DNA of 64,000 nucleotides. It comes from Octopus vulgaris (lineage: Eukaryota). A model generated the notes under the pieces. The model was not told the origin of the DNA. It ran no database searches and saw only the letters and a program-made list of their open reading frames with translations. This document shows positions 38,971 through 39,395 of the stretch, one piece after another; the first letter of the stretch is position 1, and every line of letters begins with the position of its first letter. Location of the stretch: positions 135,346,001 through 135,410,000 of the forward strand of contig OX597814.1 of assembly GCA_951406725.2 (NCBI GenBank). The letters run 5' to 3'. A program made the translations under genes and the position numbers.

Positions 38971-38979
<9 letters not shown>

Positions 38980-39300
38980 GGAAATGAAGAAAATGCTGAC
39001 AAAATAATTTAAGTAAGGGAGAGTGTATTTAATTAGGTGAAAGTTCTTTTTACCGGTTGTGCATTTGTTATGCTTATCAAAAGATGTTTTTTAAAGAGAT
39101 AGAGTTCCTTTCTGATAGATTTTTTTCTCAGATAAGAGAAAAAAATCTATCAGAAAGGAACTCTATCTCTCTTAAAAAAACATCTTTTGATAAGCATAAC
39201 AAATGCACAACCGGTAAAAAGAACTTTCACCTAATTAAATACACTCTCCCTTACTTAAATTATTTTGGCAGCATTTTCTTCATTTCCTTTTTTTATATAT
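38971..39300. repeat. Near-perfect palindrome (about 160-bp arms, 6-nt loop) between (TA)n tracts
   Basis: 38971-39129 is the reverse complement of 39136-39300 apart from one clear substitution and small indels; loop agataa. Confidence 0.95.
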
Positions 39301-39328
39301 CACAACTCGTGTTCCACATCTCCTTTTT

Positions 39329-39395
<67 letters not shown>

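Follow-up and report, generated by a model that had tools for sequence, protein, structure and literature searches.

The palindrome at 38971-39332 of the window, i.e. of the whole 64,000-nucleotide stretch of DNA that was analysed, is one insertion of an abundant repeat family that is found in three organisms, and both of its arms are most likely copies of a single template. Judged by its anatomy, it would be a truncated or non-autonomous insertion of a Penelope-like element (PLE), and we regard it as likely that a short, non-coding and abundant element of the PLE pseudo-LTR (pLTR) type entered a (TA)n microsatellite in a single event. The changes in the hammerhead-like motif of the arms, which had been questioned as INACTIVATING, are of two kinds: C3U, G8A and A13C are shared by the whole family, and G12A alone is specific to this copy. 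As changes shared by both arms are expected from one template, the apparent puzzle posed by them is removed.

The palindrome, its repeat family and the shared letters

The left arm (38975-39129, minus strand) is an inverted copy of the element without its tail, and the right arm (39136-39292, plus strand) is a direct copy that reaches, at 39300, an internal TA run where tail-less family copies stop. If the terminal TA is included, the arms measure 159 and 161 nt and the palindrome spans 38971-39296. Between the arms lie the six unpaired nucleotides AGATAA (39130-39135, plus strand), which appear to be family 5'-end sequence that is absent from the left arm. On one side only, a 36-nt 3' tail of family sequence follows (39297-39332, plus strand), which has no mirror counterpart and had been overlooked in the earlier note. 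The left and right portions of the target microsatellite are found at 38939-38975 and 39332-39392, and as (TA)n thus stands on both flanks of the 38971-39332 insertion, any target-site duplication is hidden. The arms of about 160 bp, the 6-nt loop and the (TA)n on either side, as they had been described before, are borne out by these coordinates, and so is the near-identity of the arms, which differ by one substitution and two length changes. The substitution is private to the right arm, with G at 39268 (plus strand) and T at the mirror site 38999, where the left arm has the family letter; the length changes are one of 2 nt near 39170-39175 and, at the terminus, a T-run of 7 versus 5.

Part of the stretch is present in 20 of the 24 sequencing runs listed. 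Contigs of four runs, namely X1 and X2 (both organism A), X3 (organism B) and X4 (organism C), were aligned to 39100-39332 with a cut-off of 80% likeness, and letters were listed from 4% of the depth upward. The matching contigs numbered 2007, 673, 413 and 580, respectively, and single contigs with a depth of 460-1098 were found beside many at 11-75; depth does not equal copy number, but together with the contig numbers it marks the repeat as abundant. Across the fold, the depth climbs 61-128 fold from 39116-39123 to 39140-39147, and the family therefore begins at the fold. Its 5' start lies near 39128-39135 and its 3' end either at the internal TA run (39300) or past the tail (39326-39332); the family element is non-coding and ~170-205 nt long. 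TA runs stand behind 39300 in 17, 6, 6 and 16 contigs (X1-X4) and occur in loose ends also before 39132-39135, and 6, 10, 7 and 9 contigs have a common upstream continuation before 39128, with loose ends of ~10-30 nt. The tail reaches 0.72-1.18 of the pre-tail depth and is thus covered as deeply as the arm.

Some other copies of the family also fold back at this 5' end, but their centres vary. In X1, X2 and X3, TCTTA is inserted behind 39127, which would extend the pairing by 5 nt and reduce the centre to 1 nt, and all four runs contain a TTA form of the centre. Four of the 32 pieces listed cross the fold, only one of which (X4, record 25) is near the 31-letter bridging rule; no contig listed for X1-X4 spans the whole stretch or has the exact AGATAA centre of this locus. 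Besides this, a variant that skips ~11 nt after 39240 was seen in loose ends of X1, X2 and X3 and in a gapped piece of X1, and the depth of X2 dips strongly at 39252-39267; the variant without ~11 nt of 39240-39251 is possibly a subfamily.

The family majority departs from the right arm at only three sites, having T at 39181 (94.6-98.8% of depth), G at 39207 (99.56-100%) and T at 39268 (99.96-100%). The right arm thus has three substitutions and the left arm two, both of which are present in both arms. One of these is C at 39181 (plus strand; 39086 in the left arm), a minority letter that accounts for at most 1.2-5.4% of the depth in all four runs. The other is the rare G12A at 39207 (plus strand; 39060 in the left arm), with A amounting to at most 0.37% (X1) and 0.44% (X2) of the depth and to 0 in X3 and X4. 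The comparison of arm-to-arm with arm-to-family divergence that had been suggested earlier gives one substitution and two length differences between the arms, and 2-3 substitutions in ~157 nt (~1-2%) relative to the family majority, two of them common to both arms. The probability that independent mutation struck these two sites in each of the arms is ~2e-4 or less, and that of an unrelated second family template carrying A39207 is at most 0.004. The two shared minority letters, together with the three arm differences, therefore indicate that both arms derive from a single template or a single source copy.

The hammerhead-like motif

The motif TTGATAA-gcat-aacaa-atgc-ACAA-CCGG-TA is found in the right arm at 39187-39216 (plus strand) and with the same letters in the left arm at 39080-39051 (minus strand), which confirms the claimed identity of the two. 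At 39187 (U3), 39192 (A8) and 39208 (C13), no alternative letter with at least 4% of the depth was listed in the deeply covered bins of any of the four runs, and the family core thus is TTGATAA...GCAA-CCGG-TA, in an alignment in which a more distant subfamily with a canonical core could be under-represented. The possibility raised before as a refutation of decay, that the family consensus already reads TTGATAA/ACAA, is borne out for the most part: it applies to TTGATAA and C13, which are family-wide, but not to A12, as the family has G12. Likewise, of the four changes that had been called ribozyme-inactivating, G12A is indeed particular to this copy, but C3U, G8A and A13C belong to the whole family, and U3-A8 is a known pair.

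The layout is that of a minimal type I hammerhead, with a U3-A8 core, a 4-bp stem II and a palindromic ACCGGT stem III, and A39216 would be the putative cleavage base. As in the minimal hammerheads of metazoan PLEs, including the U3-A8 variant of Schistosoma mansoni (PMC4209133), with which the family has the type I layout, G10.1-C11.1, the palindromic stem III and the U3-A8 box in common, stem II is closed by G10.1-C11.1 (GCAT/ATGC) and ACCGGT is followed by A. The family-wide core box UUGAUAA is the U3-A8 covariant of CUGANGA. The family differs from these hammerheads in having GCAA for GAAA (G12, A13, A14, A15.1), which in the 38971 copy reads ACAA, in the lack of an extra base between positions 9 and 10.1, and in helix I, which in the hammerhead register comprises 2 bp and a mismatch rather than 4-5 bp. 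The best pairing for helix I is the 6-bp TCTTTT/AAAAGA, which absorbs U3 and U4, and it therefore may be that the box has lost 2 nt and that U3-A8 is a false covariation. In view of the deviating GAAA box and helix I, we call the motif hammerhead-derived and not a hammerhead.

The motif exceeds chance only moderately. In dinucleotide shuffles of the arm, the relaxed score of the 38971 motif was equalled in 21 of 1500 cases, or in 2 of 1500 if the stem II segment was limited to 20 nt; with the family letters, these numbers were 6 and, for the compact form, 2 of 1500. A relaxed motif scan of the window gave 11 matches, 7 of which are unrelated. As a monomer, the arm motif does not adopt a hammerhead fold (z -0.81), and the Rfam search of the window found no hammerhead, its sole match being a U4 copy. 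The palindromic stem III can dimerise, with a predicted -8.3 kcal/mol. Exact motif scans had no match in metagenome contigs and none in viral contigs. Gapped-motif scans yielded 52 and 61 loci. Of these 113, none is arm-like except for one weak match (E 0.008), and 22 have at least 3 stem II pairs; all were judged to be chance matches. At L045:1501-1530 and L084:501-530, the only hammerhead-shaped match to the variant core lies inside a bacterial open reading frame, which was likewise judged to be due to chance.

What do the core letters imply for activity? The U3-A8 pair is a natural hammerhead covariation that is active in vitro (PMC3088659), it occurs in ~1,300 PLE motifs of Schistosoma (PMC4209133), and motif 3 of S. 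mansoni has an identical UUGAUAA box (PMC4209133, supplement). It is known as a compensatory pair and not a lesion. In case of G12, which serves as general base in the hammerhead (PMC11014351), the consequence is different, and the 38971 copy with its A12 should be dead. For the family as a whole, the non-canonical core and the weak helix I suggest that the motif is probably inactive, and activity at the family level is unlikely. The ribozyme of the family is probably neither active nor needed for insertion. In our literature searches, we found no natural A13C core, which weakly supports its absence from print, and no match for hammerhead together with C3U and G8A; the accessible part of PMC6765202 contains nothing further on core variants. 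Short words of the family were unmatched in the accessible supplements of PMC8557442 and PMC13282606, in which line breaks can hide matches.

Insertion mechanism and alternative explanations

The 38971 insertion has the features of a PLE insertion: an inverted 5' copy beside a direct copy, the one-sided 36-nt tail and a target made of (TA)n. PLEs frequently come with an inverted, 5'-truncated copy next to them and with a tail of 30-40 bp at one end, they prefer microsatellites, and among those listed from octopus are families with a preference for (TA)n (PMC8557442). The closest likeness is to the head-to-head pLTRs of endonuclease-bearing PLEs (PMC8557442, Fig. 2 legend; PMC3846280), with their tail-less inverted 5' copy, tailed direct copy (30-40 bp), junction palindrome and (TA)n target that would hide any target-site duplication. 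In contrast to these, the insertion has no coding part and consists wholly of two short terminal units, and the 5' end of the family is fairly fixed, as expected of a non-autonomous, SINE-like derivative. The two family 3' end points that delimit the tail match the two start sites of reverse transcription that delimit the tail in vitro in case of PAc, the Poseidon element of Anolis carolinensis (PMC11167929), and were therefore counted for the PLE model. PAc is similar also in its AT-rich target and in the independence of insertion from ribozyme cleavage, which is dispensable, as hammerhead mutants insert equally well; it differs in being autonomous and in having a working, protein-assisted ribozyme, whereas the 38971 family is known here from non-coding copies. 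The palindrome at 52854-53182, which has the same layout, an intact core and arms that agree at 156 of 156 positions, and a decayed PLE-type element in the same window were counted for the model as well. No link of the family to an RT/GIY-YIG gene was seen in the contig alignments, in which the upstream loose ends cover ~10-30 nt, and as the family is unmatched by the PLE remnant of the window (~17.1-19.9 kb), its PLE membership rests on anatomy. Similarity exists also to the non-LTR retrozymes (bioRxiv 10.64898/2026.07.22.740005), which are short, non-coding, hammerhead-bearing and PLE-related; however, these are head-to-tail tandem units with intact cores, whereas the family is head-to-head or single, and its ends, among those listed, lie off the cleavage site. 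An identity as tandem retrozyme was thus rejected, given the head-to-head arrangement at the locus and the lack of listed ends at the cleavage base.

Mechanistically, a PLE protein that is encoded elsewhere would nick the (TA)n target, and one RNA would be reverse-transcribed from the tail up to its 5' end, with the mirror arm being produced in the same insertion event. This could be achieved in two ways. Either the cDNA end snaps back, for which a possible 2-nt GA/TC match would be available, or the other nicked target strand serves as primer for a second cDNA that starts at the tail-less site, and the ends of both cDNAs are then joined. In both cases, letters of the template, or letters that arise in the first cDNA, would end up in both arms, and the three arm differences would have arisen afterwards or at the junction. 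How PLEs form their inverted copies is an open mechanistic question (PMC8557442). Junction palindromes in PLEs have been attributed to self-priming (PMC3846280), and the protein of PAc acts on both strands of the target, which it cuts and extends (PMC11167929). The 1-nt centre found in three runs would hardly form as a snap-back hairpin and thus leans to two-ended priming, which we take as a hint only in favour of the second route. We found no literature that combines 'twin priming' with pLTR. The idea that a dead-ribozyme template was still mobilised and folded back agrees with this model, but it would apply to the whole family and not to this copy alone.

What alternatives exist for a single PLE-type insertion copied from one template? 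The homogenisation of an old hairpin by gene conversion, as once proposed for this locus, is not needed, as the arms are only ~1-2% away from the family and as they still differ on either side of the motif. In a narrower form of this idea, both arms agreed with the family at insertion, one of them later acquired G12A and the T>C change at 39181, and gene conversion or hairpin repair transferred these to the other arm. CpG sites are prone to decay, and the family letter G at 39207 creates such a mutable site; in agreement with a late origin, A39207 was seen in X1 and X2 of organism A only, and the 92-nt block 39176-39267, which contains both shared letters, has no arm difference. However, C39181 may amount to up to 1.2-5.4% of the depth in all three organisms, which fits a subfamily letter that existed before, the arm differences that remain on either side of the block would require a conversion tract confined to 39175-39267, and with 2-3 substitutions in ~157 nt relative to the family majority the hairpin is not old. 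As a single template accounts for everything without a second process, such copying between the arms is quite unlikely. A more trivial explanation would be an assembly or chimeric-read artefact. Such structures do trouble assemblers (PMC8557442), no listed contig covers the whole stretch, and two of the three arm differences lie in homopolymer or CT runs. Yet past the TA runs the flanks show no mirror symmetry (best local score 22), there is a substitution between the arms, only one arm has a tail, and mirrored centres with other loop forms exist in contigs of separate runs and organisms, all of which makes an artefact extremely unlikely.

Two further alternatives concern the nature of the family. 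It could be a SINE- or foldback-type repeat that is not derived from PLEs and resembles a hammerhead by chance, in line with three core mismatches that remain even with the family letters, with the 7 chance matches of the relaxed motif in the window and the lack of an Rfam hammerhead match, and with the fact that no coding partner was found in the window or in the contig alignments. Against such an origin, which we consider very unlikely, stand the shuffles with the family letters (only 6 of 1500, or 2 of 1500 in compact form, equal the motif), the agreement with PLE descriptions (PMC8557442, PMC11167929) in the tail, in both 3' ends, in the head-to-head arrangement and in the (TA)n target, and the 52854-53182 palindrome, which combines the same layout with a perfect core. 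It could also be that the family core with U3-A8 and C13 is a working hammerhead dimer that associates via ACCGGT, and that only the 38971 copy is dead due to G12A. The natural and in vitro active U3-A8 pair (PMC3088659), with its ~1,300 occurrences in Schistosoma PLEs (PMC4209133), would agree with this, as would the core that is uniform over four runs and three organisms, and the predicted dimerisation. But A13C disrupts the consensus core and does not figure among the variants described as tolerated in the accessible text of PMC3088659, the 6-bp helix I takes up U3 and U4 from a box that may have lost 2 nt, no contig ends at the cleavage base 39216 among the loose ends listed in X1-X4, and the uniformity may simply reflect a young burst from a single master copy, so that we regard a working dimer as improbable. 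The same low likelihood is assigned to the combined possibility that a natural core variant (U3-A8 and C13) cleaves as dimer and that the mirror copies result from two-ended priming at the two start sites of one RNA. We thus retain the single PLE-type insertion from one template.

Genomic context and meaning

Upstream of the palindrome, an exon of the host gene at 35079-35210 (plus strand) encodes part of a rabphilin-like FYVE_2 zinc finger and matches rabphilin-3A (1zbd_B, E 1.4e-12), and a downstream exon of the same domain lies at 40693-40842 (plus strand; profile positions 31-80, then 62-108). As FYVE_2 exons stand on both sides, the palindrome is located in an intron of a rabphilin-like gene. 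The pre-mRNA of this gene (35079-40842, plus strand) would hold an intronic double helix of ~160 bp, with a predicted -245 kcal/mol, which may be a substrate of RNA editing.

The second head-to-head palindrome (52854-53182, in the region 52669-53205) is unrelated in sequence to the first. It has perfect arms of 156 nt, a 17-nt loop, (TA)n flanks, an intact core (CTGAAGA...GAAA-CACGTG-TA) with a 54-nt stem II segment, and a one-sided extension of ~160 nt, which exceeds the usual 30-40 nt tail. The match in arm length that had been pointed out before is real (155-161 versus 156 nt), but it concerns only two cases, and the internal spacing is unlike, with 51 nt from fold to core in the 38971 palindrome versus 20 nt in the second one. 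A common cause for the similar arm lengths was rejected for this reason. The decayed Penelope-type RT/GIY-YIG element at ~17100-19900 (minus strand) contains a hammerhead-like box at 19620 (minus strand); its relatives carry RVT_1 and GIY-YIG, the best named ones being Octopus bimaculoides proteins, which points to an octopus-like host. PLEs account for 6.83% of the genome of Octopus vulgaris (PMC13282606), and two such palindromes in 64 kb are therefore unremarkable. Other elements in the window are a U4 snRNA match (31139-31272, minus strand; 73.9 bits) with a poor 3' part, which is probably a retroposed copy, 172-nt terminal inverted repeats around a broken, Tc1/mariner-like DDE_3 transposase (58810-60330), and an RVT_1 frame with a PHD-like finger (203-1729, minus strand), a piece of a non-LTR retrotransposon. 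The frames at 37987-38301 (plus strand), which had no Pfam match, and 23452-24315 (minus strand) look like fragments of non-LTR elements of the type with a restriction-like endonuclease.

As a single locus, the palindrome matters little, as retroelements of this known kind produce such insertions routinely. At the family level, it represents a natural case in which a PLE-type family was amplified with a non-canonical and probably dead ribozyme, which agrees with the dispensability of cleavage in vitro, and the family-wide GCAA core and the statistics of the centres are points of further interest. If cleavage as a dimer with U3-A8 and C13 were true, the family would provide a natural core variant of which we found none in the literature. 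On the scale of the family, rare letters that are common to both arms, together with the variable centres, offer a cheap test of how PLEs form their inverted copies, and if two-ended priming holds true, the palindromes of the family would constitute a large natural record of the second-strand step of Penelope-type insertion, which is unsolved.
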